Positions 4,661 through 40,093 of a DNA stretch of 64,000 nt are shown piece by piece (the stretch's first letter is position 1; each line of letters begins with the position of its first letter). A model generated the notes under the pieces. The model ran no database searches and was not told where the DNA came from. It saw only the letters and a list, made by a program, of their open reading frames with translations. The DNA is from an uncultured Pseudomonadota bacterium (GTDB lineage Bacteria; Pseudomonadota; Gammaproteobacteria; Steroidobacterales; Steroidobacteraceae). A program made the translations under genes and the position numbers. The stretch spans positions 177,737 through 241,736 of the forward strand of contig CAIRLC010000022.1 in the NCBI GenBank assembly GCA_903879335.1. The letters run 5' to 3'.

Positions 4661-4672
4661 CCAGGAACTCCC

Positions 4673-5956: not shown

Positions 5957-5960
5957 GCTC

Positions 5961-6236: not shown

Positions 6237-6775
6237 ACGTATCTTTCCGTCTTGCGACTCCGGACGATGCCCTTAACCTGAGCCGCTTCGGCGCTGAGGC
6301 ATTCACGGATTGGTATCTACCGGACAATAATCCGGCGGATGTCCACCTGCACGTGCAGGAGACCTATAGTCCGACACGACAAGCTGCCGAAATCGCAGAA
6401 GCTGGCCAGGTCGCCATGCTGGCCGAAGTGGACGGCCAACTCGCCGGCTATAGCCTGTTGCGCACACAGTCGCCGTGTCCGGGCTTGGAAAGGCCGAACA
6501 TGGCGGAAATTCGTCGTTTCTATGTGGCGCGCCCTTGGCATGGGACCGGGCTTGCCAAACGCCTTATGCAGGCAGTGACAACGCAGGCCGAGCGTATGGG
6601 CGCGTTTGGCGTGTGGTTGACTTGCTGGGAGCGCAATCCGCGCGCCCTCTCGTTCTATGCAAAGAGCGGGTTTGAACGGGTTGGGCTGACGACCTTTACT
6701 GTCGGTACTGACGTCCAAACGGATCACCTGTTGGCCCGAAATCTATCCTTAACGGCGGACCCCGCCCGGAGTTAA
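6233..6775 (+). CDS. GNAT family N-acetyltransferase
   Basis: An acetyl-CoA binding motif is present (...RRFYVARPWHGTGLAKRLM...). The ATGA overlap with the upstream gene suggests coupling. Confidence 0.8.
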   Translation: MNVSFRLATPDDALNLSRFGAEAFTDWYLPDNNPADVHLHVQETYSPTRQAAEIAEAGQVAMLAEVDGQLAGYSLLRTQSPCPGLERPNMAEIRRFYVARPWHGTGLAKRLMQAVTTQAERMGAFGVWLTCWERNPRALSFYAKSGFERVGLTTFTVGTDVQTDHLLARNLSLTADPARS

Positions 6776-6779
6776 ACCG

Positions 6780-19127: not shown

Positions 19128-21497
19128 TCAATTACACGCTGTGGAGTTAACGGGCCGAATTAGCCAATAGGCAAACACCGGGATCAACGTCATTGCGGCG
19201 AGCATATTCACCACGAACATGAACGTCAGCATCAGGCCAACATCCGCTTGAAACTGCAGTGGCGAAAACACCCAAGTCGCCACACCCAATGCAAGCGTGA
19301 CACCCGTGAAAAACACACTCGCGCCCGTCACCCGCAATGCCTGATGGTAGGCCTCGCGCACCGTCGCTCCAGCGGCGAGCGCCACCTGCATTCGGCTATA
19401 GAGATAGATGCCGTAGTCAACACCGATGCCGGCGCCAAGGGCCACCATCGGCAATGTCGTGACTTTAAGACCAATGCCAACGATCGCCATCGTGGTGTAA
19501 GCGAGCACCGACACCAATATCAGCGGCAACATCACCACCACGGTGCCCACCACCGAACGGAAGGTCATCAAACACATTAAAGCGATCACCGCGAACAGGC
19601 CGAAAAGAATCGGCAGTTCTTTGGCCCGCACCTCAGCCATCTGCGCCGCCATCACACCGACGTTACCGGTCGCTAAACGCAGGCGAACACCCGCCACCGG
19701 ATGTGGCGCGCGATAGTGCTGAACCTCGTTGATGACACGGTCTATCGTTTGGGCGCGATGATCGGCTAAAAAAAGCATGATTGGCATCACGCTGCAGTCG
19801 CCGTTGAGCAGCCCACTGCTGGTATCGACAAAGCCTTGAGCCTGTACGAGGCTGCGCTGGTCCCGCGGCAGGCTACGCCACTTTAAACTTCCCTCGCTCC
19901 AGCCAGCACTGATGATTTTGGCGACTCCAGGCAAGCTCATCACATTCCGCACGCCCTCGACATTCGCCATTTGGTAGGCGAAATCATCGATGTAACGCAT
20001 CACGGCATGATCAACACAACCATTCGGTGACGTTTCCGCGATCACGTTCAGCACATCCGTACCGATAGAGAACTTATGCGTGATGACGTCCGTATCGACG
20101 TTGTAACGCGATTCAGGTCGTAGCTCGGGAACACCGGCCATGGTGTCTCCAACCGGAGTATGGCGCCCGATGGCAAAACCAACAATGCCGACGGCAATCG
20201 CGACTACGACGGCAATCGCTGCGGGACGCGGCTGCGCAATTCGGGCAAGCACTGACCATACCCGACTGAGCGCCAATTGCCGTGTGCGGACACACGCGGC
20301 GTATTCGGCGTGCGGACGCACATAAGACACGACAATCGGCAACAACACCAGGTCCGTCAGAATTACCACACCGACACCGACACTCGCGGTGACTGCCATT
20401 TCCCGGATCACGCCCACCGGAATAGCGAGAATCGTCACGAAGCCCATCAAGTCGGCCAGTAACGCCACGATGGCCGGTACAAAAAGGAGTCGGAATGTTC
20501 GTCGAGCAGCCTCTAAGGCATCGGCACCGTCCATCGCTGCATCGCCAACGGCGCTGATCTTCTGCACGCCATGCGATACGCCGATCGCAAAGATCACAAA
20601 AGGCACCAAGATCCCGATCGGGTCGACGCCGTACCCCAGCACAACCAGCAAGCCCAATTGCCAGATCACGGCGACGAGCGAACAGATCACCGGAACTAAC
20701 GCAATTTTGATGGACTGAATGTAAATCCAAACTAGCAGTAGCGTCAGCGCTACAGTGATCACGGCAAACAGAATCACGGATAGCGCACCGGAGGCGATAT
20801 CACTGACGACCTTTGCGTAGCCGATAACTCGCACGTCGATCAGGTGGGGCGGAATGCCGAGTTGAACGTCGCCTTCCTCAATATGCGCGCGTACGGCTTC
20901 AAGCGCATTGCCGATCGCGATCAGATCAACTGGTTTTCCTGTCGCTGGATCCTTCTCTAGCAATTGGGCCGACACGATTGCGCCACTGAAGTCATTAGCG
21001 ACAAGTCGACCGACGACGTTGGCTTTGAGGACGTTCTCACGAACTTGCGCGAGCCCGTCTACGGTCGGGCTGAAGCCTGACGGAATGACGTCCCCTGCTC
21101 TAATCCCGCCCTCAACCACTTCACTGAAACGCGTATTCGGCGTCCAGAGTGACTGCACGCGAGCACGATCGACGCCAGGGATGAAAAAAACCTCATCCGT
21201 CGCTTTCTTTAATGCCGCGAGAAATGCGGGTGTGTAGATGGTGCCGTCACGGACCATCAAGGCGATCAGTACACGATTGGCTCCACCGAATTCGTCGTAA
21301 TGCGCCAAATAGGTCTGCATATACGGGTGTTGTAGCGGCAATTGTTTGGTGAAGCGCGTGTCGATGTGCAGGCCGCGCATGGCCAAGCCGGCAAACAATA
21401 CGGTCAAGAGCGCAAACACCGCCAACACGGTCCGCCGCGCCCCAAACACAAAGTGCTCCAAAGGACGCACAAATCGCGGTTCTCGTGGCGCGTGCAC
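19128..21497 (-). CDS. RND-superfamily (COG1033 / MMPL-HpnN-like) inner-membrane transporter
   Basis: The 789-aa protein has two blocks of 5-6 TM helices separated by soluble loops. It is the last gene of the DUF1302-DUF1329-propeller-RND cluster. Confidence 0.85.
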   Translation of the reverse strand: MHAPREPRFVRPLEHFVFGARRTVLAVFALLTVLFAGLAMRGLHIDTRFTKQLPLQHPYMQTYLAHYDEFGGANRVLIALMVRDGTIYTPAFLAALKKATDEVFFIPGVDRARVQSLWTPNTRFSEVVEGGIRAGDVIPSGFSPTVDGLAQVRENVLKANVVGRLVANDFSGAIVSAQLLEKDPATGKPVDLIAIGNALEAVRAHIEEGDVQLGIPPHLIDVRVIGYAKVVSDIASGALSVILFAVITVALTLLLVWIYIQSIKIALVPVICSLVAVIWQLGLLVVLGYGVDPIGILVPFVIFAIGVSHGVQKISAVGDAAMDGADALEAARRTFRLLFVPAIVALLADLMGFVTILAIPVGVIREMAVTASVGVGVVILTDLVLLPIVVSYVRPHAEYAACVRTRQLALSRVWSVLARIAQPRPAAIAVVVAIAVGIVGFAIGRHTPVGDTMAGVPELRPESRYNVDTDVITHKFSIGTDVLNVIAETSPNGCVDHAVMRYIDDFAYQMANVEGVRNVMSLPGVAKIISAGWSEGSLKWRSLPRDQRSLVQAQGFVDTSSGLLNGDCSVMPIMLFLADHRAQTIDRVINEVQHYRAPHPVAGVRLRLATGNVGVMAAQMAEVRAKELPILFGLFAVIALMCLMTFRSVVGTVVVMLPLILVSVLAYTTMAIVGIGLKVTTLPMVALGAGIGVDYGIYLYSRMQVALAAGATVREAYHQALRVTGASVFFTGVTLALGVATWVFSPLQFQADVGLMLTFMFVVNMLAAMTLIPVFAYWLIRPVNSTACN

Positions 21498-21500
21498 GGT

Positions 21501-22535
21501 CTACTCCCGAGAATTAAGGGATAGCCGTCGCACCCCATTCTCACCGACGATGATAGGCCCTGCAGGGCCCGCAACGACGGCAGCCATCCCTTTTCGATCA
21601 GCCATGCGCGAGGAACTAAAGGTCTGCGCGCCGTCCGTGCTAATGAGGACGACGCCTGCCAGCCCCACAATCACGACCCGCCCGTCCGGCAAGATGGTTG
21701 CACCATCCAGCAAGGCATCCACTCCGGAGCGGATATCCACCCAGTGTTGGCCGCGGTCTGCCGAGCGAAATAGGTGGCCACGCAAGCCGGCAGCAATCAC
21801 CCCTGCCTCCCCGATAGGCTGAACGGCGAAGAAGGATCCGGCATACGGCGATGGTAAGGCCACCCACTGGTGACCGTGATCATCGGACCGATAGAGGTGC
21901 CCTGCTTCACCGGCAATATAGACGGTGCCGTCTGATGATCTCGCGATTGCATTGAGGTGCGGTTGCTCAAGATCTGCATCGTCATCCATGCGCGCAGGAC
22001 GTTTTTTTTCTTTTAAGGGTGCCGCACTGAGCTCAGTGATGGCAAAGGTCTGGCCATGATCTGTGGAGCGTGCGAGCGTGGCGTACGCACCCACGGCGAT
22101 GACATCCCCTGAGCGATCGCAGGCGACACTCAAGAAGGGCTGCGCCGTATCTGGCGCAAAGTGAGCGATACGCCAGTGCGAACCACCATCAGCAGTCGCC
22201 AAAATAGTCTCATCATGACCCACGACATAACCGACTTGGTCGTCCACGAAACAGGCCGCCGTCAATAACGCATCGACCGGAACGCTGGATTGCCTCCAAT
22301 GCGCTCCCCCGTCTCGACTCAAGAGGATGTGACCTCGCTCACCTGCCGCCAGCAATTGACCTGACGGGGAAACCGCCAACGCCGTCAGTAACGATCGTGC
22401 TGCGAGCGCCGCCACCCTTGCTGGCACGGGCGCCTCGGCCGCTCCGACCGACGCAACACTCGCGAGGCTCCAATAGACGAACGCCCAACCGACAAAACGG
22501 TTGGGCGTCCGCGACCTAGTCATTTTCACACGCAC
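21501..22535 (-). CDS. exported BNR/Ycf48-like beta-propeller protein (COG4447 type)
   Basis: A signal peptide is present. Repeated S/T-x-D-G-G-x-x-W-like blades occur (SRDGGAHW, TADGGSHW, STDHGQTF, SDDHGHQW, SADRGQHW, STDGAQTF). Confidence 0.75.
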   Translation of the reverse strand: MRVKMTRSRTPNRFVGWAFVYWSLASVASVGAAEAPVPARVAALAARSLLTALAVSPSGQLLAAGERGHILLSRDGGAHWRQSSVPVDALLTAACFVDDQVGYVVGHDETILATADGGSHWRIAHFAPDTAQPFLSVACDRSGDVIAVGAYATLARSTDHGQTFAITELSAAPLKEKKRPARMDDDADLEQPHLNAIARSSDGTVYIAGEAGHLYRSDDHGHQWVALPSPYAGSFFAVQPIGEAGVIAAGLRGHLFRSADRGQHWVDIRSGVDALLDGATILPDGRVVIVGLAGVVLISTDGAQTFSSSRMADRKGMAAVVAGPAGPIIVGENGVRRLSLNSRE

Positions 22536-22548
22536 TCAGTCAGTCAAA

Positions 22549-23928
22549 TCAACGCGTACCGCGGGTGCGCAGGGCTGCGGCAGTGTAATCCGTCAGGCTA
22601 CGCTTGATGCCAAAGTCGTAGGAGCGATCGGCATGGTCCTCAAAGCCCAGCGCAAGATAACGACGTGACTGCAGATCGTAGGTCAGTTCCATCGTGGTCC
22701 AGAACGTCGGCACATTAAAGTAATTGATGCCGTGCCCTTCCTGGACGCGCCAGAGTTGGTCGCGTGCGTCATAGCAGTCGACCGCGACGATCTGCCACGA
22801 GTCTTCATCAATGTAGAGCGTGCGGCGCTTGTAGATGTGGCGCTGACCGGGCTTTAAGACCGAGTCCACAACCCAAACGCGATGCAATTCATAGCGCGCG
22901 AGATCTTGGTTGATGTGTAGCGGCCGGATGACGTCATCCGGCTTTACTTTCGCCTGATGGAGCCGATAAGCGTTGTACGGAACGTAGATCTCTTTTTTGC
23001 CGACCAATTTCCAGTCATAGCGCTCTGGACTGCCGTTGTACATATCAAACTGATCCGATGTCCGCAGCCCGTCAGCGGCCGTGCCTGGATTATCGAATGC
23101 CACATCCGGCGCACGGCGTACCCGTCTCTGGCCCGCGTTATAAATCCACGCGCGGCGATTTTCTTTGGACTGATCAAGGGTCTCGTGCACCAGCAGAATG
23201 TCACCGGCAAGGCGGGCTGGTGCGACTGTTTCTTCAATGAAATACAAAATCACATTATCGAGATCAGCTTCTTTCACATTCGGCTGCGAGTAGGCAACGT
23301 AAAACTCATCGTGGAATTTCACCATGTTGTACGTGCCAGACGGAGACACCGCGGCTTGTCCGATCTCGCGCGCAGCGGCATCGGCACGATAGCGCAAAAC
23401 GTGATTCCAAAAGGCTTCTACGCCCGATTTCGGGATCGGGAACGGAATACCCTCAGTGGCCCCATTAACGCCGTTCCCGCCTGCCGCTAACTGCGCGCTC
23501 GTGGCATTACGCTTAGTGGCGTCGTAAATACGTTGTGGTGATGAGGCGCTTCGATGAGTCGGGTACACATTCATGAAGAACGTGTCTTTGTACTGCTTGA
23601 GAAGCGCCTTATCGCCTTCCGTGAGGTGATCGGCGTATTGAGCCATATTGGCTGCGGTGATTTTCAACGTCGGCTTGTCAGTCGCGTACGGATCGGGAGC
23701 TCGACCCGGCGAAGCAAAGCTCGGAAACCCTGCCTTGGCTGGCGATGACAAACCGCCGTCCCAAGCAGGAATGGTACCGGCGGCATTGCCCGCCTTTTCA
23801 CCGCCCAACGGCGTCAAATCGACGCCTAGTCGAGCTGCGTCTTGCGCACTCACGCCGGCAATGACAAGACCAAACGGTGCCAGCGCCAAGCTGAACGCCG
23901 CGATGGCCGCTATTTTTTTAATGTTCAT
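22549..23928 (-). CDS. DUF1329 family exported protein (LolA-like fold family)
   Basis: A signal peptide is present (MNIKKIAAIAAFSLALAPFGLVIAG). The length and sequence pattern fit DUF1329, and it is always paired with DUF1302. Confidence 0.8.
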   Translation of the reverse strand: MNIKKIAAIAAFSLALAPFGLVIAGVSAQDAARLGVDLTPLGGEKAGNAAGTIPAWDGGLSSPAKAGFPSFASPGRAPDPYATDKPTLKITAANMAQYADHLTEGDKALLKQYKDTFFMNVYPTHRSASSPQRIYDATKRNATSAQLAAGGNGVNGATEGIPFPIPKSGVEAFWNHVLRYRADAAAREIGQAAVSPSGTYNMVKFHDEFYVAYSQPNVKEADLDNVILYFIEETVAPARLAGDILLVHETLDQSKENRRAWIYNAGQRRVRRAPDVAFDNPGTAADGLRTSDQFDMYNGSPERYDWKLVGKKEIYVPYNAYRLHQAKVKPDDVIRPLHINQDLARYELHRVWVVDSVLKPGQRHIYKRRTLYIDEDSWQIVAVDCYDARDQLWRVQEGHGINYFNVPTFWTTMELTYDLQSRRYLALGFEDHADRSYDFGIKRSLTDYTAAALRTRGTR

Positions 23929-23957
23929 GTCCGCTACCCCTCAGGACAATCGTTCGA

Positions 23958-26060
23958 TCAGAACGAGTATTTCAGCGCTGCCGCCACCCAGTCACGGTCG
24001 ATGAGATCGTTGAATCGGCCGGCGCCTGCATACTTTGTATAGGTCAGGTCGATCTGCCAACGGTTCTGAAGACTGGCCCCAACTCCCAGACCCAGAGCTT
24101 CGCGACCCTCAACGAAGTTACCGCCAGGACCCGGAGTCGTGCCTTTGACGTCCTGTTGCCAGGTGAGCTTCGGACTTACCGTCCAAGAGCCCAGTAAGTT
24201 CGGGTATTCAAGTTTCGCCGCGACGCGATAGCCCCACGAGAATGGATCGGCAAATCGGTTCTGCGGCTCGACCTCCCCGTAATGGAGATAAGACAACGCG
24301 GTGTTGCCGGAGACCGATGTGCCCGGCCCGTTGAAGCGCAGCCCTTGGCCGTTAGGGCCGCCAGTCGTCTTATCGGGCATACCAACCACGTTGGTCGCAC
24401 CGACTTCAGCCAAGAAAACCAACTGTTGCGCACCCAGAATCTGGGAGAAGGCCTTCGTGGCGGTCAGTTGCTCCTGCCAAACGTTATAGCGTCCCCAGCC
24501 ATGAACCGTTCCGCCCGGAATGGTGGCGCCGAGTTGACCGCAGCGCGACAGCGTCGGCACCGCCGGGTTGCAGCTACCCGGAAATGGCGCACCGGGATAC
24601 TGAAGACCATAAAGCGCCTGTTCCAATGGCGTGAGTGCAGAGAACAGCAGTTCCACGTCATCAAATTGCAGTGGCGTATCTTTGCGGTATTCAACCTGCC
24701 CCTGCAAGGCGACGCCCGAGGTGCCGATTTGCGTATTAAAGGCGACAGCAAAAGTTTGGAGATTATCTGGATATTCAACGAAGTAGGACGCCGTCTGGGC
24801 GAACTCGTGAGTGGCAAAGTTATTGACCTGACTGGCGAGGTTGCCGCCACCCAGGTAGGTATTGGCCCCAACCGTCGCGTAGCTTGCCAAGGTAGCCGGG
24901 GTAATCGTGCCGCCTGATGCGTGCGCGGCTTGATAGCCGGCCGCCGTGCCTACTTGGATGGCTGCGGCTTCCGGCAGACCCGCCACTAAGGCTTGGGCGG
25001 TCGCTTCCATCGCGGTCGCCGTCGCAGCCGCATTTGCAATGCCGGTCGTTGTGCCGGCCCGACCACTGATTAACGGCAGATGGCTCGCGTAATTCGTGAA
25101 ATAGAAGCTGAGCTCAGTGCCGCTACCTAAGTTGGGCAGGAACCACCGCAATGCAAAACCGAACTGACCGCTGTCCTTCGGATCAATGCGCGGACCTTGT
25201 GGGACACCTTGGAAGTTCGGAATTAGAGGACCGCCCAACGACCGGAAATCCACGCCTTGATCCGAAAACCCGCCAAAGCCGAGGAAGACCTGCTTGCCGC
25301 CAGCAGAAACGTAATCATTCGTCGAAAAATACGTTCCAGCCGGTTCCGGCTCGGTACGGCGCCAGCCCAACAAGTAGAAAGCCTCGATTGAGGTATTTTC
25401 CGAAATGCCGAGAGATCCCTTCACCATCTGTTGCGGCGTAAACGCCTCTTTCAGCTCAGATCCGGGAATTCGAAGTGCTGACACGTCGACCGGATTCACG
25501 CCGGACAAGCCACCCTGAATGAAGGTGCTCTCGCCCCAACTGACGATCTGTTTACCGACACGCAGTTCGACCGGATGTCCCTGACCTATGTCCCATTTAC
25601 CGTAGGCAAACGCGTCCAACAGTCGCACGTAATGGCCAGCGAGATCCTTAGCTGCGGCACTCAGCGGCGTGCGACGCGTGGCCATATCCATGACGGCAAC
25701 GTCGTACAAACCCGATCCACGGGCGAAAAAGCCGTAATTCTTATACTTCAGAGACAACTCACTGGTGATCTTGAAGGCTTCACTGAACTGGTCATTCTTC
25801 TGATAGTTCGCATCGCCATCATCAATATTGACGGAACGCCCAGTGCCGCCGTCGGCAACACCGACCAAGGCTGGGTTCTGCGCGGCCACGCGCCATGCGC
25901 CACCGAGCGAAATAGTGGTGTCCAAGTTCCCGGTGAGACCGCCGTCACTACCAAAGTCGAACGCTATTGCGTTCGATGACGTTGCTAGCGCTGCAGCGGC
26001 CAATACTCCGCTGATTGCTGCGCTCAGAAAGGAGGCCCGGTGTTTTAATTGAGTCTTCAT
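23958..26060 (-). CDS. DUF1302 family outer-membrane protein (predicted large beta-barrel)
   Basis: A signal peptide is present (…AAAALATSSNAIAFDF). The 700-aa protein has alternating beta-strand character and the C-terminal aromatic signature ...AALKYSF typical of OMPs. Confidence 0.8.
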   Translation of the reverse strand: MKTQLKHRASFLSAAISGVLAAAALATSSNAIAFDFGSDGGLTGNLDTTISLGGAWRVAAQNPALVGVADGGTGRSVNIDDGDANYQKNDQFSEAFKITSELSLKYKNYGFFARGSGLYDVAVMDMATRRTPLSAAAKDLAGHYVRLLDAFAYGKWDIGQGHPVELRVGKQIVSWGESTFIQGGLSGVNPVDVSALRIPGSELKEAFTPQQMVKGSLGISENTSIEAFYLLGWRRTEPEPAGTYFSTNDYVSAGGKQVFLGFGGFSDQGVDFRSLGGPLIPNFQGVPQGPRIDPKDSGQFGFALRWFLPNLGSGTELSFYFTNYASHLPLISGRAGTTTGIANAAATATAMEATAQALVAGLPEAAAIQVGTAAGYQAAHASGGTITPATLASYATVGANTYLGGGNLASQVNNFATHEFAQTASYFVEYPDNLQTFAVAFNTQIGTSGVALQGQVEYRKDTPLQFDDVELLFSALTPLEQALYGLQYPGAPFPGSCNPAVPTLSRCGQLGATIPGGTVHGWGRYNVWQEQLTATKAFSQILGAQQLVFLAEVGATNVVGMPDKTTGGPNGQGLRFNGPGTSVSGNTALSYLHYGEVEPQNRFADPFSWGYRVAAKLEYPNLLGSWTVSPKLTWQQDVKGTTPGPGGNFVEGREALGLGVGASLQNRWQIDLTYTKYAGAGRFNDLIDRDWVAAALKYSF

Positions 26061-29964: not shown

Positions 29965-32900
29965 ATGGATAGCGGGCAAGGGTGGCAGTTTTGGGTGGAT
30001 CGTGGCGGCACATTCACCGACGTCGTCGGGCGGGCACCCGACGGCACGCTACACGCACACAAACTACTGTCCTTTGTGCCGGGCCGGTATGAAGATGCTA
30101 CGAAGCCCGGCATTGAAGCGGTCTTGCGGCGAGCGAATGCCGAGCGTGCAACCATTGAGCGAGTTCGGGTAGGCACCACCGTTGCGACCAACGCGCTACT
30201 TGAGCGCCGGGGCGCGCGCACCCTGCTTGTGACCAACCGCGGGCTTGGTGACGCTCTGGCGATTGGCACGCAGGAGCGACCAGAATTATTTCGGCGCCGG
30301 ATAGATTTGCCGAAACCGCTGTATGACCGGGTCATTGAATGTGGGGGTCGTATTAGCGTCGGCGGGGATGTCCTCGAGCCGCTCGATGAATCGGCGCTTC
30401 GGGAAGCGCTCGCTGCCGCTCGGGCAGATGGCTATACCAGTGTTGCCATCATATTTATGCACGGATGGCGGTACACCGAGCATGAGCGATGCGCCGCCGA
30501 AATAGCGCGCGAACTGGGTTACTCGGCCGTGGCCGTTTCTCACGACATTAGTCCGACTCAGGGGTATGTCAGCCGCGGCCAAACCACCGCTGCTGACGGC
30601 TATCTTGCGCCGCTCATTGGCCGCTACATAGCCAACTTAGTCGCGGATCTCGAGACTTTAGGTCGAAACATTCAACTCGAGCTCATGCAAAGTCACGGCG
30701 GTCTCGCTCCAGCGCGATCTTTCCGCGGCACCAATGGCGTGCTGTCCGGTCCCGCCGGAGGCCTCGTTGGCATGGTCAAAACCGGCCTCGAAGCGGGCTT
30801 CAATCGCTTGATTGGCTTTGACATGGGCGGCACCTCAACGGATGTGTCGCTTTACGATGGCGCATATCCTCGCCGTAATGAGTTGAAGATTGCGGGCGTC
30901 AGGCTCGTCGTTCCCTCCCTTGATGTGCACACTGTGGCCGCCGGCGGAGGCTCCGTATTGCGTTACCGAGATGGCCGTTTTTCCGTTGGCCCAGACTCCG
31001 CGGGCGCCGCGCCCGGCCCGGCCAGTTACGGCCGTGGGGGTCCACTGGCCGTCACGGATTGCCATGTCGCTCTCGGTAGGCTTGCGGCAGATTTTTTGCC
31101 GGCGGTTTTTGGCCCGGAAGGCAACCAATCACTCAATCACTCGGCGGCATTGTCGGGGTTTAGCGATCTCGCTCAGCAATTGAGCGCTGACGGATCGCCC
31201 ATATCGGCTGAAAATATCGCCGAGGGATTCCTAACGGTCGCGGTCGACACGATGGCCAACGCGATCAAACAAGTCAGCTTGCGCATTGGCCTTGATCCAG
31301 CCGACTTTGCACTCGCGAGTTTCGGCGGCGCTGCCGGCCAAGTCGCTTGTCGAGTGGCTGACGCGCTTGGCATTCAGTCCGTTCTCATTCATCCCTTGGG
31401 CGGCGTTCTCTCCGCGCTCGGGATTGGCCTCGCGGAAGCACGCGCGTTACGACGGGGCACTTTGAGCGTTGCGCTGAATGAGAACGGCCTGCAAGCCGCA
31501 CGCGCTCTAGCCGAGACGCTGGCAACAGCGGCTCGAATTAGTGTGTCGGAGGACGAGCTCTGCCATGTCGAATATATCGCAGAGATCCGCACAGCCCGTT
31601 CCGAGGTGGCGTTGAGCGTAGCACTGGCTGATTTAACGACGATGCGCGGGCAATTCATCGCGCAATACCGTCGACGTTTTGGCTACGACCCAGAGGCAGG
31701 CTGCGAATGGATCATCGCCGCGGTCACAGCAGAAGCCATAGGACCATCCCCCCCGCTCGGCATTGCAACGCAACCCGCTTTTGCGGCGGAGATTCCGCAA
31801 TCGGTGCGCGCTTGGTTTGACGGTGAATGGCAAGAAGTGCCGGCCCGTCGCCGCGATCAGCTATCGCCCGACGCGATTGTGGAGGGGCCAGCACTGATCG
31901 TTGAGCACACGGCAACAACCGTCATCGAGCCTGGCTGGCAAGGGCATCATCAACCCGATGGAATCCTCATTCTGCAGCGTTCAACCACGAAGCCGCCCGC
32001 TCGCACGGCAAACCTCCAACAGGCTGATCCGGTGCTACTGGAGGTCTTCAATGGACTCTATATGCACGTCGCGGAACAAATGGGATCTGTACTGCAGCAA
32101 TCCGCTAGCTCGGTGAATATCCGCGAGCGACTCGATTACTCGTGCGCCATTTTCGACGCGAAGGGCCGCCTCGTGGCTAACGCCCCGCACATGCCGGTAC
32201 ATTTGGGATCGATGGGCGCGAGCGTACGAGCGGTCATGACGCGCCACGCTGGACGCGTAACGCCCGGCGACGCTTATCTCGTCAATTCGCCTTACGCGGG
32301 TGGCACTCATCTACCCGATCTCACGGTCGTCAGTCCGGTGTATATGCCGAATACATCCGAACCAAAATTCTGGGTAGCATCCCGCGCGCATCACGCCGAC
32401 ATTGGCGGCGTCACACCTGGCTCTATGCCGCCTTTCAGTCGATCCATCGATCAGGAGGGAGCGTTATTTGACGGCGAACGCATTGTCCGTCACGGCGTTC
32501 TTGACCGATCCTTGATCGAAGGAATGCTGAGCAGCGGCCCTTACCCAGCTCGTAACATCCCACAAAACCTTGCAGACCTGTCGGCCCAACTAGCCGCCAA
32601 TGTGCGCGGCAGCGCGGAACTGGCACGATTGGTCGATCAGCATGGTGCGCCGGTGGTGGAAGCCTACCTCGACCATGTCCAACGCCACGCAGAAGATCGA
32701 GTCCGTGCTGCCCTAAGGGCGCTGCCAATCGCGGGTCGAGGCCCTATTCATCAAGTCGTCGAAATGGACGGCGGCGAGCAGATCGCTGTCGAAGTCGACG
32801 TCAATGCAGACACCGGCACCGTCAGAATCGATTTCTCAGGTACGTCTGGTCAATCGGCAACCAATTTCAACGCGCCGCGCGCGGTGTGTACCGCCGCCGT

Positions 32901-33573
32901 CCTATATGTACTCAGAACACTCGTCGAGGACGACATACCGCTTAATGAAGGGTGCATGGCACCGCTCGAACTGATTGTTCCGGTGGGTTCTTTACTCGAC
33001 CCTCAATTTCCAGCCGCTGTGGTGGCCGGTAACGTTGAGACTTCTCAGGTGATCGTCGACTTGTTATTCGGTGCGCTCGGCGTACTCGCGGACTCCCAAG
33101 GCACCATGAACAATCTCACCTTCGGGGACGAGGAATATCAGTATTACGAGACCATTGCTGGCGGCGCCGGTGCAGGCCCTGGATTCAGTGGAGCCAGCGG
33201 TGTGCAAACTCACATGACCAATTCGCGGCTCACCGATCCCGAGATTTTGGAGGCGAGGCTTCCGGTGCGTTTGGATGCATTCCGCTATCGGCTCGACTCA
33301 GGCGGCTTAGGCATATACGGCGGCGGCAATGGCCTCGTTCGTCGGATTCGCTTCTTGCGCCCCCTCCAAGTTGCCATTTTATCTAACCACCGTCGTTTTG
33401 CGCCACGCGGCCTAAACGGCGGTGGCGACGCAGCACGAGGAATCACTCGCATCCTGCGAGCCAATGGACACGTTGAGGTGTTGGCCGCTGCGGATTCAGC
33501 CTTCGTGTCGGTGGGGGATGCCGTAGAAGTCGAAACGCCTGGCGGCGGTGGTTGGGGAATACCGCAACATTAG
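29965..33573 (+). CDS. fused hydantoinase A/B-type 5-oxoprolinase (ATP-hydrolysing)
   Basis: The 1202-aa protein has an N-terminal HyuA part ([15 protein letters not shown]...) and a C-terminal HyuB part (...[12 protein letters not shown]..., ...TPGGGGWG). Confidence 0.9.
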
Positions 33574-35219
33574 GCCTTGAAGTGTTCATGCAACAGTGTC
33601 GCCACATCGAAGTCCGGATCGAGCGGCGGCTTTCCACCGGCAGACTGCAGCTGATTGAGGCTGGTCTGTTGCACGGTTGTACCGGCAGCCTCGTGCGTTA
33701 GAAGCCAGCAGATCCAAACGCCATCGCGGCCCACGTTATAGCCAAACAATACGCTCGTGCTCGGAGTCTGCCGCGGCGGATTGACGCGCTCATCGCAGAC
33801 AACGAACCAGGCCGAGCCCGGTGCGGCGTCCGGGAAGGCGCCATCGATCTCGTACTGAGCGAGGAATTGACCTATCTGACGGGCTAGCCGCCGCCAGACC
33901 ACCGGCACGGAGGCCTCAAATAATACCCAGCGGGTACCACGGACAATGCTGTCCACCATCTGCAGCGCGAGTCGACGGCGGGCAAGGTAACGCCATTCTG
34001 GAATGGTGGCGCGGGCAGCCGCCAGCGTACGGGCCGAGGTAGGTCGCGCTTGCCGCACAGATTGCAATACATTAACGCCTGCAACAGCCAAGCGAATGCG
34101 CTGCTCTTCCGTCACCGTACAGGCTGGCCTAAAGCCTGGCCTTAGAGGCGCATCACCTTCGGTAGTCGGCGACCAGGGCTCGCTTGAAGCCGCCAGCCGC
34201 GACAACACGCCAAGCGCGGCGGGGCCTGGTGGAAATTGCTCAATACGGCCCCGAAGTCGGTCGTAGACCTGCACCCAAGGAAAGTACATCACCGCTTGAT
34301 CACTCGAGTACGGTGTTTCACGGACGCCAGTCAACGCTGCCATCGGCGTAGTCCATTCGACTGGTGGATCAACCATCAACATCGCATGGCGCGCTCGACA
34401 CAACCGCGCCGCCACGAGCAATGCGCTTGCCCCAACCGCATGGTCACGGGAAAGCGCCGGCAAATACAGGAAGTGGAATGAATCTTGTTCGCCAAAAGCA
34501 AACAAGCCCGTCGATTCCGTCGCAGAACCAATCAGGTCATAGTCAGATAATGGACGGCCGTCATCGCCATCCGGATTCGATGCGACGTAGGCTGCGAATG
34601 AGCGGAGATCTCCGCGCTCAGTCTGCAGGGGCCGCAATCGAGGCACCGGTCCACGCAACCGGACTAATGATGACTCCGCCAAAAGCACACCGATGTTCCG
34701 AGGGGACTCCGGATGCACGGACGCCGCCGAGAATATCTCCTGATCCTCAACGTGCTCAGAACCGGGCGAGCGCAAACGATGAACGACGAGATTAAAACTC
34801 GGCGTCTCTGCGCCGTTGTTGGGAATATTGTCGTAATCGACCGAAGCCCGCAGAAATTCGCGCGTCCCGGGACTGCGCGCTTCGAGCACTAAGGCCCCGC
34901 CATCGATCGTCGGCAATTGGATTGTCGCCGGTTTAGCGGCATTGGCAACTCGCACCACTCGTGCCGCGCGGCCGCCATTTTCGAAATATTGTTCTATGGC
35001 ATACGACAAGGCGCTGGGCTGCCACAGGCCACCGAATACCGCCTGATATTCGGCAAAACTTTTAACGCAGACTGGGCGATTGAGAGGGCCGCGTAGAGTG
35101 CGCCCTATAAAGGCAACCACGCCGGTACCGACACGGACTATCGGATCAGTTGCACCAGTTTCACTGGCGACCTGTATGCCCTGTAACGACGATGTGAGCA
35201 ACCGGCCCCCTCCAATCAT
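33570..35219 (-). CDS. phage tail sheath family protein homologue (orphan)
   Basis: Sheath-like blocks appear in canonical order: VAFIGRTLRGPLNRPVCVKSFAEYQAVFGG, AIEQYFENGG, STGLFAFGEQDSFHFLYLP, YFPWVQV, GVNVL, WRYLARRRLALQMVDSIVRGTRWVLFE and FVVCDE. An alternative TTG start at 35201 has GGAGG 7 nt upstream. Confidence 0.7.
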   Translation of the reverse strand: MIGGGRLLTSSLQGIQVASETGATDPIVRVGTGVVAFIGRTLRGPLNRPVCVKSFAEYQAVFGGLWQPSALSYAIEQYFENGGRAARVVRVANAAKPATIQLPTIDGGALVLEARSPGTREFLRASVDYDNIPNNGAETPSFNLVVHRLRSPGSEHVEDQEIFSAASVHPESPRNIGVLLAESSLVRLRGPVPRLRPLQTERGDLRSFAAYVASNPDGDDGRPLSDYDLIGSATESTGLFAFGEQDSFHFLYLPALSRDHAVGASALLVAARLCRARHAMLMVDPPVEWTTPMAALTGVRETPYSSDQAVMYFPWVQVYDRLRGRIEQFPPGPAALGVLSRLAASSEPWSPTTEGDAPLRPGFRPACTVTEEQRIRLAVAGVNVLQSVRQARPTSARTLAAARATIPEWRYLARRRLALQMVDSIVRGTRWVLFEASVPVVWRRLARQIGQFLAQYEIDGAFPDAAPGSAWFVVCDERVNPPRQTPSTSVLFGYNVGRDGVWICWLLTHEAAGTTVQQTSLNQLQSAGGKPPLDPDFDVATLLHEHFKA

Positions 35220-35253: not shown

Positions 35254-35397
35254 TCAGCGAGACTGGGACCGATGGATTGCTTTGAGCTGCGAAGCCTCTT
35301 GATCCCGTCGCGCAGATTCCACACGCGCTTCAGCCGCATCACGACGTTTACGCTCGATCTCCTCGAGCATGAGCTGAATCCATGCCGTTGTACCCAT
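35254..35397 (-). CDS. hypothetical 47-aa charged helical protein (below the ORF-track cutoff)
   Basis: The ORF runs ATG to TGA and encodes MGTTAWIQLMLEEIERKRRDAAEARVESARRDQEASQLKAIHRSQSR. A GAGAGGG sequence ends 5 nt upstream of the ATG. It fills the gap between the GT4 gene and the sheath-like gene. Confidence 0.3.
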   Translation of the reverse strand: MGTTAWIQLMLEEIERKRRDAAEARVESARRDQEASQLKAIHRSQSR

Positions 35398-35447: not shown

Positions 35448-36596
35448 CTAGGCTTTCAAGCTTGCGTACAACTTTACTAATCGTTCGGCCATCGCGAGTG
35501 CAGACCAAGACTGCGCATCGGCCGGCGCTTTTGCCGCCAGTTCAGATCGCAACTGAGGCGTATGCAATACGCGAATGACGGCTTCGGCGAATGCCGCCTC
35601 GTTCTCTTCAACTACCAGTGCACCTTGCGCATCCTTTAAGACATCGGCGGTACCCATCACCGCCGTCGAAATCACGGGCGTTCCTAAGGCCAGCGCCTCC
35701 AGGAGGACCAGGCCTTGCGTTTCTGTGCGGGAAGCGAAGACGAAGGCATGTCCGGCCCGATAGCAATCCAGCAGTGTCGTACTGCGATCTAGATAACCCA
35801 CGAACTGTACGTTTGCCCGCAGACCGAGCCGCCCGACCATCGCCTTTAAGTGACCCAGTGCCGGCCCCTCACCTGCGATCACCAGCAAAACATCGGGTAC
35901 CGTACGCACCACATGACTCAACATGCGCAGAATAAAGTCGATGTTCTTTTCGTGGGCGACTCGAGAGATGTGGACCAGCATCGGCCGATCTGCCGGGATG
36001 CCATGTGCCGCACGGAATCGTGCCCCATCACCACCCCGGAAACGGGCCGCGTCAATGCCCGTTGGCAGCACCTCAGCCGGCGTCTCTACGCCGTACTCGC
36101 GCAATTTGCTCAGCATCTGGGGAGAAGGCACGACCAGCGAGTCCACCGCACGGCATTGCGAGACCGTCATCGAGCGAGCGATCCGCCGCGTCAACCAGCC
36201 CGGCAAGAACGGCGCGTAATGGTGAAAATACTCTTCGAAGAACGTGTGATAGGTCTCTATGACTGGCAAGCCTAAACGTCGCGCTAAGGCCACCCCCGCA
36301 TAATGGGCGACAAAGGGGGTGTGGATATGCACGACGTCATAACTCCCCTCCCGCAAGGTGGCCTCGAGCCGACGCAACGCGCGACTGCTCATCAATCGGT
36401 CTTCGGGGTCTAAGGGGACGGCCCGGGCGGGTATCCGGAGGATGTCGGCAGGGTCCGGAGCGGTGCCTCGGTATTCGGGGGCGATCAACGTGGATGGATG
36501 GCCGAGCTCACTTAGAGTTTGGCGAAACGTTGCGATCGACGTAGAGACACCATTGACGCGCGGAAACGACACGTCCGAAACCATCAAAATACGCAC
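35448..36596 (-). CDS. GT4-family glycosyltransferase
   Basis: The protein reads MRILMVSDVSFPRVNGVSTS... and carries the C-terminal GT1/GT4 signature ...FVFASRTETQGLVLLEALALGTPVI.... Confidence 0.85.
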   Translation of the reverse strand: MRILMVSDVSFPRVNGVSTSIATFRQTLSELGHPSTLIAPEYRGTAPDPADILRIPARAVPLDPEDRLMSSRALRRLEATLREGSYDVVHIHTPFVAHYAGVALARRLGLPVIETYHTFFEEYFHHYAPFLPGWLTRRIARSMTVSQCRAVDSLVVPSPQMLSKLREYGVETPAEVLPTGIDAARFRGGDGARFRAAHGIPADRPMLVHISRVAHEKNIDFILRMLSHVVRTVPDVLLVIAGEGPALGHLKAMVGRLGLRANVQFVGYLDRSTTLLDCYRAGHAFVFASRTETQGLVLLEALALGTPVISTAVMGTADVLKDAQGALVVEENEAAFAEAVIRVLHTPQLRSELAAKAPADAQSWSALAMAERLVKLYASLKA

Positions 36597-36663
36597 GCTA
36601 GCGCCCCACCGATGTCTTGGAGAATCGTCACGATATTGCAGTCAGGTGACGCTTCTGTGACAG

Positions 36664-37842
36664 TCAGTGGCTATTCGTACCCGGTTCCTGCTCGTGAAGC
36701 ATTTCGGCGTATTGCCGCTCGTCGTCTAACGAACCGCCGCGCCCGTCCCAAGTTGCGCCATTCGGCAAGGCATTGGCGACTCTTGGCGCTGCAGCGATCG
36801 AAGCCCATAAGCTTGCGTCGCGACCCGCACTGACGGGCAACGGCAAACCCGAGGCCGCGACCGATTCGTGCGCGATTTGAGACCAACTCAGCGCCACACC
36901 CCGCGCGTCAAATCGCGCCTTGAATGTATCTTGCATGGCCGCCGCCGACGGCACCGGTCTTGACGCGGCTTTTTGGTCATCTTCCAGATGTCCAAAAGAT
37001 TGCACATAGGCGACACCGCCGCGCCATCCCAACACAGTGGGCTGATTCACGACCTGCACTTTGGTGCCGATCGGTATCAGATCGAACAGTACCTTGATGT
37101 CCTCAGGATATAGACGCAGGCACCCATGGCTTGACCGCATCCCAACTCCGTAGGGCTTATTCGTGCCGTGAATCAGATAGGTGGGCCAGCCGAGTCGAAA
37201 CAAATGAGCGCCGAGCGGATTATCGGGACCGGCGGCGACCGTTGCCGGCAATGGGTCGCCGTTCTCCGCATGCTCACGGCGCACCGAATCTGGAGGGATC
37301 CAGACAGGATCTTTTTGCCGGGCAACGATGCGAGTCACACCTTCAGGCGTCTTCCAACCGACCTTGCCGATACCGATCGGATGGGTAATGACAACCTTGG
37401 GCGCGCCCTTGGGCACAATCGGGTAGTAATAGAGCCGCATCGCGGCAATATTCACCACCACACCTTCTCGGGGGGCATTCGGCAGCACGAAAGCGGTCGG
37501 GACTACGATTTCCCTACCCCGGCCAGGCAACCAGGGGTCGACCGAGGGATTGGCCCGAACGATCTCCTCGTAGCCGACGTTAAAACGTCGCGCGATATCA
37601 GGCAGCGTATCCTCGGCACTGGCCGCCACAACGACTACCCGCCCAACAACGCTATCACCCGCGGATAAGACAAAACGGTCGGAGGCTTGCGTACGCACCA
37701 AAACCGGCGGCGCAGGCGCAAAGGGCACTTCGGGAACAGTGGCCACCGGAATGGACGGTTGCACCGAAGAACACGCGGCAACAATAACCGCAGCGATGAG
37801 CGTGATAAGCCTAGAGCAATAACGGACGATCAGACAATTCAT
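36664..37842 (-). CDS. L,D-transpeptidase lipoprotein with LysM domain (YkuD family)
   Basis: A lipobox is present (LIAAVIVAAC|SS). A LysM-like segment (...EDTLPDIARRFNVGYEEIVRANP...) and the catalytic motif ...MRSSHGCLRLYPEDI are present. The start is taken at MNCLIV. The ORF-track start at 38061 runs through the upstream gene. Confidence 0.85.
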   Translation of the reverse strand: MNCLIVRYCSRLITLIAAVIVAACSSVQPSIPVATVPEVPFAPAPPVLVRTQASDRFVLSAGDSVVGRVVVVAASAEDTLPDIARRFNVGYEEIVRANPSVDPWLPGRGREIVVPTAFVLPNAPREGVVVNIAAMRLYYYPIVPKGAPKVVITHPIGIGKVGWKTPEGVTRIVARQKDPVWIPPDSVRREHAENGDPLPATVAAGPDNPLGAHLFRLGWPTYLIHGTNKPYGVGMRSSHGCLRLYPEDIKVLFDLIPIGTKVQVVNQPTVLGWRGGVAYVQSFGHLEDDQKAASRPVPSAAAMQDTFKARFDARGVALSWSQIAHESVAASGLPLPVSAGRDASLWASIAAAPRVANALPNGATWDGRGGSLDDERQYAEMLHEQEPGTNSH

Positions 37843-38311
37843 TCGATTCCGCCGTACGCGCCGGGAAATGGCGATCCAGCAGTCTACCGATTGCTTGGAC
37901 TCCCGACACGGCTCCAGCATGCCACGCGCCTGCTGCAAAAGCCGTTTCCATCCCCTGACTGACGTCGCCCCATTCGGCTGCGGTGACAACGTCATTGAAG
38001 CCACGATCCGCAATGATCTCAACAGCGCGGTCTGCCCAGAGGACATACACGAGCACACCATTATTGTCGGCGGTATCCCAGACTCGATTCATTGCAAATA
38101 ATTCGATCGCCCGTTCACGCGGAGTGCGCCGACTCCAAAGTGCTGCGATTGATAAATCGGTCTCTACAATGAAACGAATCTCACATCGATGTCCACGCTC
38201 CGCTTCCGCGACCGCTGCCTCAATGGATTGCAAGACTGCGGCGTTAAAACGCCTTCGAACAGCCATCGGGCTCTGCAGCAGATGTCGCAAGAGTCTGCGC
38301 ATGAACGCCAT
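37811..38311 (-). CDS. TPM-domain protein (second TPM gene of the lemA operon)
   Basis: The start MAFMRRLL... lies 1 nt after the upstream stop. The core reads ...EIRFIVETDL...NNGVLVYVLWADRAVEIIADRGF.... Confidence 0.75.
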   Translation of the reverse strand: MAFMRRLLRHLLQSPMAVRRRFNAAVLQSIEAAVAEAERGHRCEIRFIVETDLSIAALWSRRTPRERAIELFAMNRVWDTADNNGVLVYVLWADRAVEIIADRGFNDVVTAAEWGDVSQGMETAFAAGAWHAGAVSGVQAIGRLLDRHFPARTAESNELSDRPLLL

Positions 38312-38312
38312 G

Positions 38313-39206
38313 TCACCAACTCCCCGACGAACCGCCGCCACTGAATCCACCGCCGCCACCACCAAACCCTCCACCACCGAAGCCACCGCCACCCATCCCA
38401 CCGCGATACGCTCCGCGCCCAATGCTCCCGCCCACGAACCCCCATAACCCACCAATACCGGCCAACAACGTGAGCACAAATGAGAGAACTGCCGCGGCAG
38501 TCGACAGGCTCCAGAGGCCGATCGTCACCTGAGCGATGACGCCAGCAAGCACGGCGCCGGTCACGGCACCGCCTAATCGCCCTAAAAAAGTGCGAACAAA
38601 AATACCGGCAAAGACAGCGAAAGCCAGTACGCCGAGTAATCCATGGATGGCATCCATCGAGTCGCTGCTGGATGACTCCGGCGGCGGTGGCAGCGGCTCG
38701 CCATCAATCAATCCAATTAATTTATCCAGCGCGCGATCAATGCCGCCGTAGTAATCTTTTTCGCGAAAAGCACGGCGGAGATATTCATCCGAGATTCGCG
38801 CGGAACCCAAATCGGTAATCGCCCCCTCTAAACCGCGCCCAACTTCCCAGCGAAAGCGGTGATCCTCGGTGGCAATAATCAGCAACGCGCCGTCATCAAT
38901 GCCTTTGCGCCCGAGTTTCCAAGAATCTGCGAGCCGAATACCAAATTGTTCGATCGCCTCCGGCTCGGTGGTCCGCACAATGACCACCGCAACCTGACTG
39001 CCTTTTCGCATCTCCAACGCCGCTAACTTGTCGTTCAGCGCTGCAGCCTGGGGCGGCGTCAGTAGTCCGGCCTCATCAACGACTCGAGCAATGACTGGCA
39101 GCGCGCGTGGCGCAAGACGGTCTTCGGCACCACCGGCCACCCCGCTGCCAATCATCATCATGCCGAGAAATACGGCGACGAGGATTCGGGCGAAAAGACC
39201 GCACAT
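38313..39206 (-). CDS. TPM-domain (YgcG-like) membrane protein with Gly-rich C-terminal tail
   Basis: A signal/TM segment is followed by a TPM core (...VVDEAGLLTPPQAAALNDKLAALEMRKGSQVAVVIV...). TM helices follow, and the tail reads GGMGGGGFGGGGFGGGGGGFSGGGSSGSW. Confidence 0.8.
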   Translation of the reverse strand: MCGLFARILVAVFLGMMMIGSGVAGGAEDRLAPRALPVIARVVDEAGLLTPPQAAALNDKLAALEMRKGSQVAVVIVRTTEPEAIEQFGIRLADSWKLGRKGIDDGALLIIATEDHRFRWEVGRGLEGAITDLGSARISDEYLRRAFREKDYYGGIDRALDKLIGLIDGEPLPPPPESSSSDSMDAIHGLLGVLAFAVFAGIFVRTFLGRLGGAVTGAVLAGVIAQVTIGLWSLSTAAAVLSFVLTLLAGIGGLWGFVGGSIGRGAYRGGMGGGGFGGGGFGGGGGGFSGGGSSGSW

Positions 39207-39207
39207 G

Positions 39208-39813
39208 TTATTTGGCCGGTGCGGAGCCGAAATCTACGACTGGAGGCTTCTCGAGGACGGCTTCATTCTCGACCGTAAAATTTGGCTTGATTGATGCGTG
39301 GAACATCATCGCCGTCAAATTCGTCGGGAACTGACGAATCGTAGTGTTGTATTCCTGAACAGACTGAATATAGCGATTACGCGCCACAGTAATACGATTT
39401 TCCGTGCCTTCGAGCTGCACCTGCAGGTCGCGGAAATTCTGGTCCGACTTCAATTGTGGGTAATTCTCCGACACGACTAGAAGTCGCGACAAAGCGCTGG
39501 ATACCTCACCTTGAGCGCGCTGAAAGCTGCGCAGTGACGCCTCATCGTCCGGCTTTACCGTGATTGAGGTCGCCTTAGCCCGAGCCTCGGTCACGCCAAT
39601 CAGCACAGCTTGCTCCTGCTGCGCATAGCCTTTTACCGTGTTCACCAAATTCGGGATCAGATCTGCGCGACGCTGATACTGATTGAGCACTTCAGACCAA
39701 TTGGCTTTGGTCTGCTCGTCTAAAGATTGGATCTGGTTATAACCGCAACCGGCTAGTGGCGCTAACAACAGCAACATGCACAGACGAACAATCATTCGGG
39801 ACGCGGTAAACAT
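39208..39813 (-). CDS. lemA: LemA family lipoprotein
   Basis: A lipobox is present (LLLLAPLAGC|GYN). The LemA core reads ...QRRADLIPNLVNTVKGYAQQEQ...LLVVSENYPQLKSDQNFRDLQVQLEGTENRI.... The start is taken at MFTASRM. Confidence 0.88.
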   Translation of the reverse strand: MFTASRMIVRLCMLLLLAPLAGCGYNQIQSLDEQTKANWSEVLNQYQRRADLIPNLVNTVKGYAQQEQAVLIGVTEARAKATSITVKPDDEASLRSFQRAQGEVSSALSRLLVVSENYPQLKSDQNFRDLQVQLEGTENRITVARNRYIQSVQEYNTTIRQFPTNLTAMMFHASIKPNFTVENEAVLEKPPVVDFGSAPAK

Positions 39814-40093
39814 GAGGACTCCTTCCTGCCATGAATTACAGTCACACCGAGTATATGCGTCCACCGGTACGGCAACACAAGAGCCACGAATCGAAAGCTT
39901 TGGGCCGGGTTCCTTTCGCGTTGGGAACCGTCGTGGTCAATTTGCAGCCTACTGGATGGATCACCCTGCGCAATCGCCTTTAACCATGAACATTTTGGGC
40001 AAGGCCCGGACGACGAAGAACGAGCTTGCGTAAGAACGCACCAATGCAGCGCAGCGGACACTGCATAGGAAGTCGTAGCAAGTGCATTCGGTC

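Follow-up and report, generated by a model that had tools for sequence, protein, structure and literature searches.

The 64-kb stretch of DNA analyzed here (the window; contig CAIRLC010000022.1 of assembly GCA_903879335.1, positions 177,737 to 241,736) comes from an uncultured gammaproteobacterium of the family Steroidobacteraceae and carries, among housekeeping genes, a solitary gene for a homologue of the sheath protein of contractile injection systems (CISs). The overall reading favored here, to which a probability of about 0.5 is given, is that this is an anciently domesticated CIS sheath gene and that tube-independent self-assembly into a scaffold is the most likely activity of its product. 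The parts of this reading are held with different confidence: a domesticated, tube-less gene under selection is highly probable, and the polymer or scaffold mechanism, which is drawn by analogy with sheath proteins that assemble by themselves, is proposed tentatively, at somewhat less than even odds. The retention of a lone sheath across a group of soil and sediment Gammaproteobacteria suggests that the protein now does a different job.

Sequence and fold of the sheath-like protein

The gene is located as follows, and residue numbering throughout refers to the 543-residue form of its product.

33570..35201, minus strand: sheath-like gene, 543 aa plus stop; the alternative ATG at 35219 would give 549 aa

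The first-pass annotation, which was made from the letters of the window, had described a 549-aa open reading frame (ORF) containing the peptide blocks of contractile sheaths, and both the ORF (minus strand, 33570..35219, from the ATG at 35219) and every block that it quoted are found in the sequence. The check that it proposed with the Pfam models PF04984 (Phage_sheath_1) and PF17482 (Phage_sheath_1C) was negative. Scans of the window protein with Pfam-A and NCBIfam gave no match even at E ≤ 1, weak precomputed matches to PF04984 or PF17482 occur in some other members of the family, and no Pfam or NCBIfam model covers the orphan sheath family as such. This silence is attributed to divergence of the hallmark motifs and not to a want of homology; in the case of the Pfam models, the replacement of the GVWKAPAG loop described below is probably the reason.

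Sheath identity, for which the first-pass annotation had looked to a significant profile or fold match, is carried by other comparisons. The protein matches the PHROG family phrog_23, annotated as “tail sheath”, with an E value of 1.9e-30 over residues 10–484. A phmmer search of the PDB returns the CIS sheath of Streptomyces coelicolor (8bky/8bl4, 2e-34; 2.4e-34 for 8bky) and that of Halogeometricum borinquense (9ezm, 2.6e-28), followed by more distant matches to the sheaths of Anabaena, PVC, and AFP. An AlphaFold2 (AF2) model computed from 30 family members has a predicted local distance difference test (pLDDT) score of 80.5 and a predicted template modeling (pTM) score of 0.75, with disorder limited to residues 1–14 and 517–543. 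When the PDB is searched with this model using Foldseek, the top match is 9ezm_A (E 7.6e-29, TM-scores of 0.62/0.68), followed by the sheaths of the Streptomyces CIS, phages P1, T4, and KP1, R-pyocin, PVC, and AFP, and all of the top 50 listed matches are CIS or myophage sheaths. Alignment of the orphan and CIS sheath profiles with hhalign runs end-to-end over 500 columns at 32% identity, with a probability of 100% and an E value of 2e-110. By these profile comparisons and the predicted model, the window protein is a divergent, full-length homologue of contractile sheaths.

Similar to the S. coelicolor CIS sheaths (8bky, 8bl4, 9gtp, and 9gts), which provide the best sequence match, and to the archaeal CIS/type VI secretion system (T6SS)-like sheath of H. 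borinquense (9ezm; PMC11566945), which provides the best fold match, the window protein has a domain layout that includes an insertion domain. Structural alignment to these sheaths gives an identity of about 20–23%. The Streptomyces and H. borinquense sheaths belong to complete machines, whereas the window gene has no machine genes nearby and its motifs differ. Matches in phage records are found in two of 50,697, at 21–27% identity. The protein contains neither a signal-like N terminus nor a hydrophobic segment (maximum Kyte–Doolittle score over 19 residues, KD(19), of 1.13) and is therefore presumably cytoplasmic.

Tube-less loci and machine-embedded relatives

In the window, the position at which the tube gene of a CIS would sit is taken by a convergent gene of a different kind.

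29965..33573, plus strand: fused hydantoinase A/B (5-oxoprolinase-type) gene, 1202 aa, assigned with Pfam
33570..33573, convergent: tail-to-tail overlap of the sheath-like gene and the hydantoinase/oxoprolinase gene, 4 nt, stop on stop

The convergent 4-nt stop overlap agrees with the first-pass annotation, which had also stated that no other part of a contractile machine is visible in the 64 kb. A Pfam scan of the roughly 50 non-overlapping ORFs that encode 150 aa or more assigned them to non-phage families, apart from a few without any match, and turned up no integrase or phage gene. The matches include purine synthesis proteins, Rho, a DEAD helicase, PlsB, oxoprolinase, and GreA, in addition to a UvrD-family helicase, a D-Ala-D-Ala ligase-type protein, and glycogen genes. 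Hidden Markov models (HMMs) for the tube, the Pvc16 cap, the baseplate-like protein, and the ATPase, taken from the closest CIS loci, give no match in the six-frame translation of the window, and neither tRNA genes nor Rfam families (at the gathering threshold) are present in the 64 kb. For the ORFs scanned with Pfam and the six-frame translation searched with CIS HMMs, the statement holds.

Relatives of the window protein are numerous: a threshold of E ≤ 1e-3 admits 8184 cluster representatives, and one of E ≤ 1e-30 admits 752. The 120 best protein matches are about 516–580 aa long and 51–96% identical. Clustering of the representatives yields two sets. The first comprises the clade of the window protein and several groups of 505–528 aa at 34–41% identity. 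The second, group 2, is large and contains proteins of 500–850 aa at 32–36% identity; it was sampled as 80 metagenomic loci (L093–L172) and represents the closest CIS-embedded relatives, to which the end-to-end profile alignment given above refers. In most of the 25 group 2 loci inspected, the sheath gene is followed after 18–101 nt by an ORF of ~175 aa and then, in order, by ORFs of about 240, 300, 440, and 700 aa. Pfam assigns these five ORFs as a gp19-type tube (PF06841, 1e-43 to 1e-46), a T4_baseplate-like protein, an unannotated protein, Pvc16_N (the cap), and an AAA+ ATPase. Judged by this gene content, the group 2 operon is a canonical CIS.

The genes that accompany the sheath gene in group 2 were searched for in the loci of the first set, with 64 kb examined for the window and up to 10 kb on each side in other genomes. 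A clean tube HMM was built from 21 group 2 tube proteins; of the 60 CIS loci whose downstream sequence is long enough, 56 contain a tube by this model. The same model, run with filters off against the six-frame translation (1.58 Mb) of the window and 92 orphan loci, gives 0 matches (best E 4.9). No specific match in the orphan loci is obtained with the HMMs for the cap, the baseplate-like protein, and other CIS genes (c3, c5, c6, and c12), and the ATPase HMM yields one generic AAA match only. Eleven apparent tube matches, which came from an automatic cluster (c1), were rejected, as they are alternative-frame shadow ORFs inside the sheath genes. Such antisense or alternative-frame ORFs are conserved enough in the GC-rich sheath genes of L001–L172 to cluster by themselves (for example, L087 11200..11394), and they make up the pseudo-families c0, c7, c8, and c17 and part of c1.

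The deeper tube-less sub-clades span 34–45% identity, and their gene contexts vary. Upstream of the sheath-like gene in P0273, P0278, and P0280 is a PALP or EamA gene; the downstream gene is a convergent oxoprolinase in P0278 and P0280 and is cut off in P0273. P0387, of a Woeseiaceae-type group (a related match is labeled Woeseiaceae), has YkuD and PALP genes upstream, and P0398 and P0370 have YkuD … DUF3429 upstream and oxoprolinase downstream. All six are without a tube gene. In P0147, where M48, YkuD, and rhomboid genes lie upstream, the unannotated downstream ORFs are not matched by the CIS HMMs. On the 1.7-kb contig of P0144 (group 7), the next gene begins 6 nt past the stop; this stub was considered as a tube gene and rejected, as it proved to be MGMT-like DNA_binding_1, a gene from the conserved neighborhood. 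In one sister-clade genome (L087), an island at 1..8520 lies just upstream of a PALP and sheath-like gene pair and contains toxin–antitoxin genes (PIN/VapB and FitA-like), two N6/N4 DNA methylase genes, and genes for a ResIII helicase and a Fic protein.

In a neighbor-joining tree, all tube-less groups are separated from the CIS-embedded group 2 by a split with 100/100 bootstrap support. The first-pass annotation was to fall if homologues always sat inside CIS loci and the window copy were a decaying remnant; instead, the tube-less proteins form a clade of their own, and the tree agrees with the stand-alone state having arisen once, long ago.

These loci also bear on the possibility that the protein is a working sheath in trans, encoded by a relocated gene and used with tube, baseplate, spike, and ATPase proteins whose genes lie elsewhere in the genome. 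A complete fold with both arms would suit such a role, and the machine-gene searches were confined to the flanks given above. The arrangement is nevertheless improbable. The nearest CIS relatives carry the tube gene directly after the sheath gene, at the distances and frequencies described, no tube is found nearby in any sampled orphan sub-clade, and the orphans have lost motifs that every working sheath in the sister group keeps, as detailed in the next section. The orphan gene is also widespread: with each GTDB species represented by one genome, at least 571 genomes were found to encode a relative, and sporadic CIS loci would not be expected in each of so many species.

The best 80 of these genomes (47–63% identity) all belong to Steroidobacteraceae or are unclassified gammaproteobacterial metagenome-assembled genomes. 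Gene order in this group is stable and involves a cluster of genes upstream of the sheath-like gene.

35448..39864, minus strand: co-directional cluster of LemA, TPM, TPM, YkuD (L,D-transpeptidase), and GT4 glycosyltransferase genes, assigned with Pfam; gaps of at most 80 nt

The first-pass annotation had noted a glycosyltransferase and cell-wall genes upstream; GT4 and YkuD are among the genes assigned here with Pfam. Orthologues at 96, 75, and 64% identity share the order LemA-TPM-TPM-YkuD-GT4-small ORF-sheath with a convergent oxoprolinase gene and the same 4-nt overlap. When the neighbors of the window gene were searched for with tblastn, LemA-TPM-YkuD upstream and oxoprolinase/abhydrolase/PlsB downstream were found in nearly all loci with enough flank, and GT4 in only a subset. 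Where the spacing differs, the inserted genes encode an EamA transporter, a rhomboid protein, a PhoX-like protein, or DUF4442; these upstream genes were considered as CIS parts and rejected as unrelated to CISs. Across loci, the sheath-like gene and its neighbors rise and fall together in identity. The prediction that orthologues keep the same non-phage neighbors is thus borne out by synteny, both in the deeper sub-clades and in 80 or more species-level genomes, and these comparisons of genes and neighbors show that the sheath-like gene has been inherited vertically across a broad gammaproteobacterial clade.

The gene is also maintained. Relative to the 96% orthologue, the ratio of nonsynonymous to synonymous substitution rates (dN/dS) is 0.126 at an unsaturated dS of 0.15; the same pair of genomes gives 0.092 for the oxoprolinase, 0.062 for GT4, 0.064 for PlsB, and 0.042 for LemA. 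Comparisons with the 75 and 64% orthologues, for which dS is near saturation, give dN/dS values of 0.08–0.17. The expected purifying selection on orthologues is therefore seen at a level similar to that of the flanking housekeeping genes. A CIS-sheath HMM matches a gene-covering six-frame stretch in all 93 loci (the window and 92 others; 95 matches at E ≤ 1e-3), and the gene is full length in 7 of the 7 loci whose boundaries were inspected. Its composition, which had earlier been judged native by eye, was computed against the genes of the window and is indeed typical (GC z = +0.23; third-position GC, GC3, z = −0.87), with a codon usage that ranks as the fourth most typical of 45 genes.

A decaying, functionless prophage or CIS remnant is effectively refuted by these observations. 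The failure of the Pfam and NCBIfam sheath HMMs to recognize the window protein is what a remnant would predict, but the sheath HMM match persists in all loci down to ~34% identity, dN/dS is about 0.1, composition is native, synteny is conserved, the clade is monophyletic, and the window contains no integrase, tRNA, or phage gene. The earlier view that the gene is not a recent prophage scar (dN/dS ~0.13, with no phage gene or tRNA nearby) and that it is an intact, native, stand-alone sheath that was exapted is accordingly upheld by the profile and fold matches, the synteny, the dN/dS of 0.08–0.17, and the separate clade.

Altered motifs, shifted constraint, and possible roles

The regions of the protein in which the orphans differ most from CIS sheaths are the following.

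35121..35201, minus strand: N-terminal arm, residues 1–27, which matches the TYPGVYVEE “handshake” strand by hhalign and is disordered in the monomer model
34587..34940, minus strand: β-rich insertion domain, residues 88–205, from secondary structure, aligned to the equivalent domain of CIS sheaths
34137..34184, minus strand: loop, residues 340–355, in which RGVWKAPAG is replaced by P-W-S-P-T-T-E-G-D-A-P-L-R-P-G
33573..33662, minus strand: C-terminal tail, residues 514–543, of low pLDDT, present only in the Steroidobacteraceae-type clade

Profile alignment shows that the whole sheath architecture is retained, with an N-terminal arm, an insertion domain, and C-terminal strands; the C-terminal tail adds ~30 residues that are conserved in the clade of the window protein (…SLNRLQSAGGRPPLDP..DVAT.L). 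The hallmark motifs are altered. Group 2 sheaths keep TYPGVYVEE, RGVWKAPAG, VVWGARTL, and GFAPLKPAEFV together with an adjacent tube gene (56/60 loci), whereas the orphan clade has lost these motifs and shows no tube gene in 93 loci. In the orphan clade, these motifs read T-x-G-I-x-V-A-x-E, P-x-W-S…P-L-R-P-G, …ARTLAG, and GFAAxRxGEWHCWL, respectively. Conservation in group 2 is 93% or higher at 107 columns; the orphans retain 43 of these, and at 35 the majority residue has been lost. The lost columns cluster at residues 340–355, 372–395, and 490–495, which correspond to the GVWKAPAG loop and the C-terminal strand.

Conservation has also been redistributed. Over the whole protein, it is 0.47 in the orphans and 0.54 in group 2. 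The insertion domain is more conserved in the orphans than in the CIS sheaths (0.52 versus 0.40), and the reverse is observed for the N-terminal arm (0.37 versus 0.59) and the C-terminal strands (0.38 versus 0.57), such that in orphans the insertion domain, in relative terms their best conserved region, lies above the protein average and the terminal arms below it, and in CIS sheaths the order is inverted. Seven residues are invariant specifically in the orphans, all seven in or just after the insertion domain: Glu115, Arg118, Asp124, Arg142, and Gln154 (E115, R118, D124, R142, and Q154) lie inside the domain and D220 and D222 just past it. Within the N-terminal arm, G8, V11, I21, and T26 remain conserved in the family. 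Together with an FGGLWQPS motif and the loss of GVWKAPAG, the seven invariant residues are diagnostic of the family.

One explanation of these changes is a neofunctionalized protein that no longer polymerizes, namely a soluble monomer or small oligomer whose insertion domain serves to bind a partner or ligand or has become catalytic. The movement of constraint from the handshake arms and inner loops to the insertion domain speaks for this explanation, as do the seven new invariant charged or polar residues and the disappearance of the GVWKAPAG and VWGARTL hallmarks. It is the main rival to a self-assembling sheath and is still regarded as rather unlikely, since the full architecture, including both arms, aligns end-to-end with working sheaths, the four N-arm positions are still conserved, and no enzyme or ligand-binding family is detected in Pfam-A or NCBIfam, with Foldseek yielding sheaths only.

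In the preferred reading, of a domesticated sheath that assembles without a tube, an ancestor of the Gammaproteobacteria of Steroidobacteraceae/Woeseiaceae type retained the sheath gene of a CIS that shared its lineage with the Streptomyces and haloarchaeal systems. The gene has since descended vertically, as a unit of one gene among stable housekeeping neighbors, under purifying selection. Its product has kept the sheath fold and both arms, lost the hallmark motifs, and gained invariant charged residues near the outer domain. These steps are shown by the comparisons above; beyond them, the protein would self-assemble without a tube into polysheath-like tubules or rings. The assembly would be static and unable to inject, and would act as a scaffold that holds a conserved partner or ligand in the cell by its conserved outer domain; in the lineage of the window, the gene would probably be co-transcribed with the envelope-related LemA-TPM-YkuD-GT4 cluster.

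The proposed mechanism is based on polysheaths, stable tubules made by sheath protein alone, as described for gp053 of phage FV3 (PMC6357053) and the T6SS sheath HsiB1C1 of Pseudomonas aeruginosa (PMC3597794). Because sheaths form such tubules without tube and baseplate, the default expectation is a tube-independent assembly that would be unable to inject. The conserved, outward-facing domain suggests a binding surface, that is, a scaffold. Polysheaths differ in that they are by-products or artefacts of the expression of a lone component, whereas the window gene is natural, selected, and stand-alone. A further extension of the idea, that the protein represents an unrecognized class of cytoplasmic polymer or scaffold, a tube-freed, self-assembling sheath that organizes partners through its outer domain and is encoded by a core gene of Steroidobacteraceae/Woeseiaceae-type bacteria, is more speculative still.

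Several points weigh against the favored reading. The absence of tube and baseplate genes is established within 64 kb in the window and within at most 10 kb per side elsewhere, and the sampling of sub-clade contexts left out g6 and g8. The handshake arms of the orphans show below-average conservation (0.37–0.38 versus 0.47), and such relaxed arms would fit the loss of a polymer mesh as well as a changed mesh. Lastly, co-transcription with the YkuD cluster is not conserved, as EamA or PALP lies divergently upstream in other clades; the link to the envelope is therefore weak.

The window gene fails the defining context of a CIS, a T6SS, or a phage tail because no tube, baseplate, cap, or ATPase gene is adjacent to it. 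The T6SS, tailocins or R-pyocins, and extracellular CISs (eCISs; PVC/AFP) are likewise host exaptations of phage-tail proteins that are inherited vertically under purifying selection (PMC8987985). These systems retain sheath, tube, baseplate, and spike, and cytoplasmic CISs also keep sheath, tube, and baseplate together, whereas only the sheath remains at the loci examined here. In the literature searched, no precedent was found for a natural stand-alone or domesticated sheath, and the domestications described are of whole tails. If the favored reading is correct, a sheath protein can be recruited for a cellular function by itself, and the family would provide a natural system for the study of tube-independent sheath assembly; if the protein indeed polymerizes, it would represent a cytoskeleton-like element with its origin in a phage-tail-like machine. 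Surveys of CIS diversity usually require several core genes per locus and would hence pass over a sheath gene that stands alone. The favored reading would also mean that “phage tail sheath” annotations, of which abundant bacteria of soil and sediment carry hundreds, are misleading as evidence of prophages.

Gene boundaries and upstream genes

35206..35213, minus strand: Shine-Dalgarno-like sequence GGAGGGGG, which precedes the TTG start at 35201; read from the sequence
35254..35397, minus strand: 47-aa micro-protein gene directly upstream of the sheath-like gene; sequence MGTTAWIQLMLEEIERKRRDAAEARVESARRDQEASQLKAIHRSQSR

Gene calls of 549 and 543 aa both occur in public data, in which the exact protein is confined to metagenome assemblies. 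The TTG at 35201 is preferred over the ATG at 35219 because a GGAGG lies 7 nt upstream of it; at the ATG, a GAGGA directly abuts the start codon. The resulting length of 543 aa is the same in the closest orthologues (P0001–P0003), and TTG 35201 is likely to be the true start. At the other end of the gene, the overlap with the oxoprolinase gene measures 4 nt in L001–L003, 31 nt in L085, and 15 nt in L090. The convergent stop overlap is thus kept across deep divergence; it leaves no space for terminators, and the transcripts of the two genes must therefore overlap.

In the stretch from GT4 to the sheath-like gene, a simple scan detected neither a promoter-like nor a terminator-like site, and co-transcription of LemA-TPM-TPM-YkuD-GT4 with the sheath-like gene is plausible in the lineage of the window. 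The GT4 protein has a weak match (1.8e-10) to PF20706, “GT4 in conflict systems”, which is far below its generic GT4 scores. This match bears on a last alternative, in which the protein is an anti-phage decoy or sensor, a host copy of the sheath that poisons myophage tail assembly or senses tail proteins. Its derivation from phage-tail-like machinery and the toxin–antitoxin, restriction–modification, and Fic island near the gene in one genome (L087) could be cited for the same role, which is very improbable all the same: PADLOC models match neither the window protein nor eight of its neighbors, the gene lies in a stable core region and not in a variable island, its evolution is slow (dN/dS 0.08–0.17), unlike that of arms-race genes, and it is of CIS type, with 21–27% identity to any sequenced phage sheath.

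The micro-protein has the core motif [ST]-E/D-W-[LM]-x-x-M-[LIM]-x-E-[IV]-x-R-K-[RQ], followed by a basic, Pro-rich tail, and has no match in Pfam or PADLOC. Gene calls on 36 contigs list it as a hypothetical protein, and its dN/dS is 0.28–0.45. An HMM of the core motif detects it in 48 of the 92 loci, deep outgroups included, always upstream and on the same strand, and does not detect it in the other 44. At loci with inserted genes, it remains with the YkuD/GT4 block and not with the sheath-like gene. On these two grounds, a role as obligate partner of the sheath-like protein was considered and rejected as improbable; the micro-protein is a conserved neighbor.

Farther along the window, a minus-strand cluster at 19128..26060 encodes an MMPL/RND-like transporter, a BNR/YCF48-like protein, DUF1329, and DUF1302; it adjoins PlsB in related genomes too.

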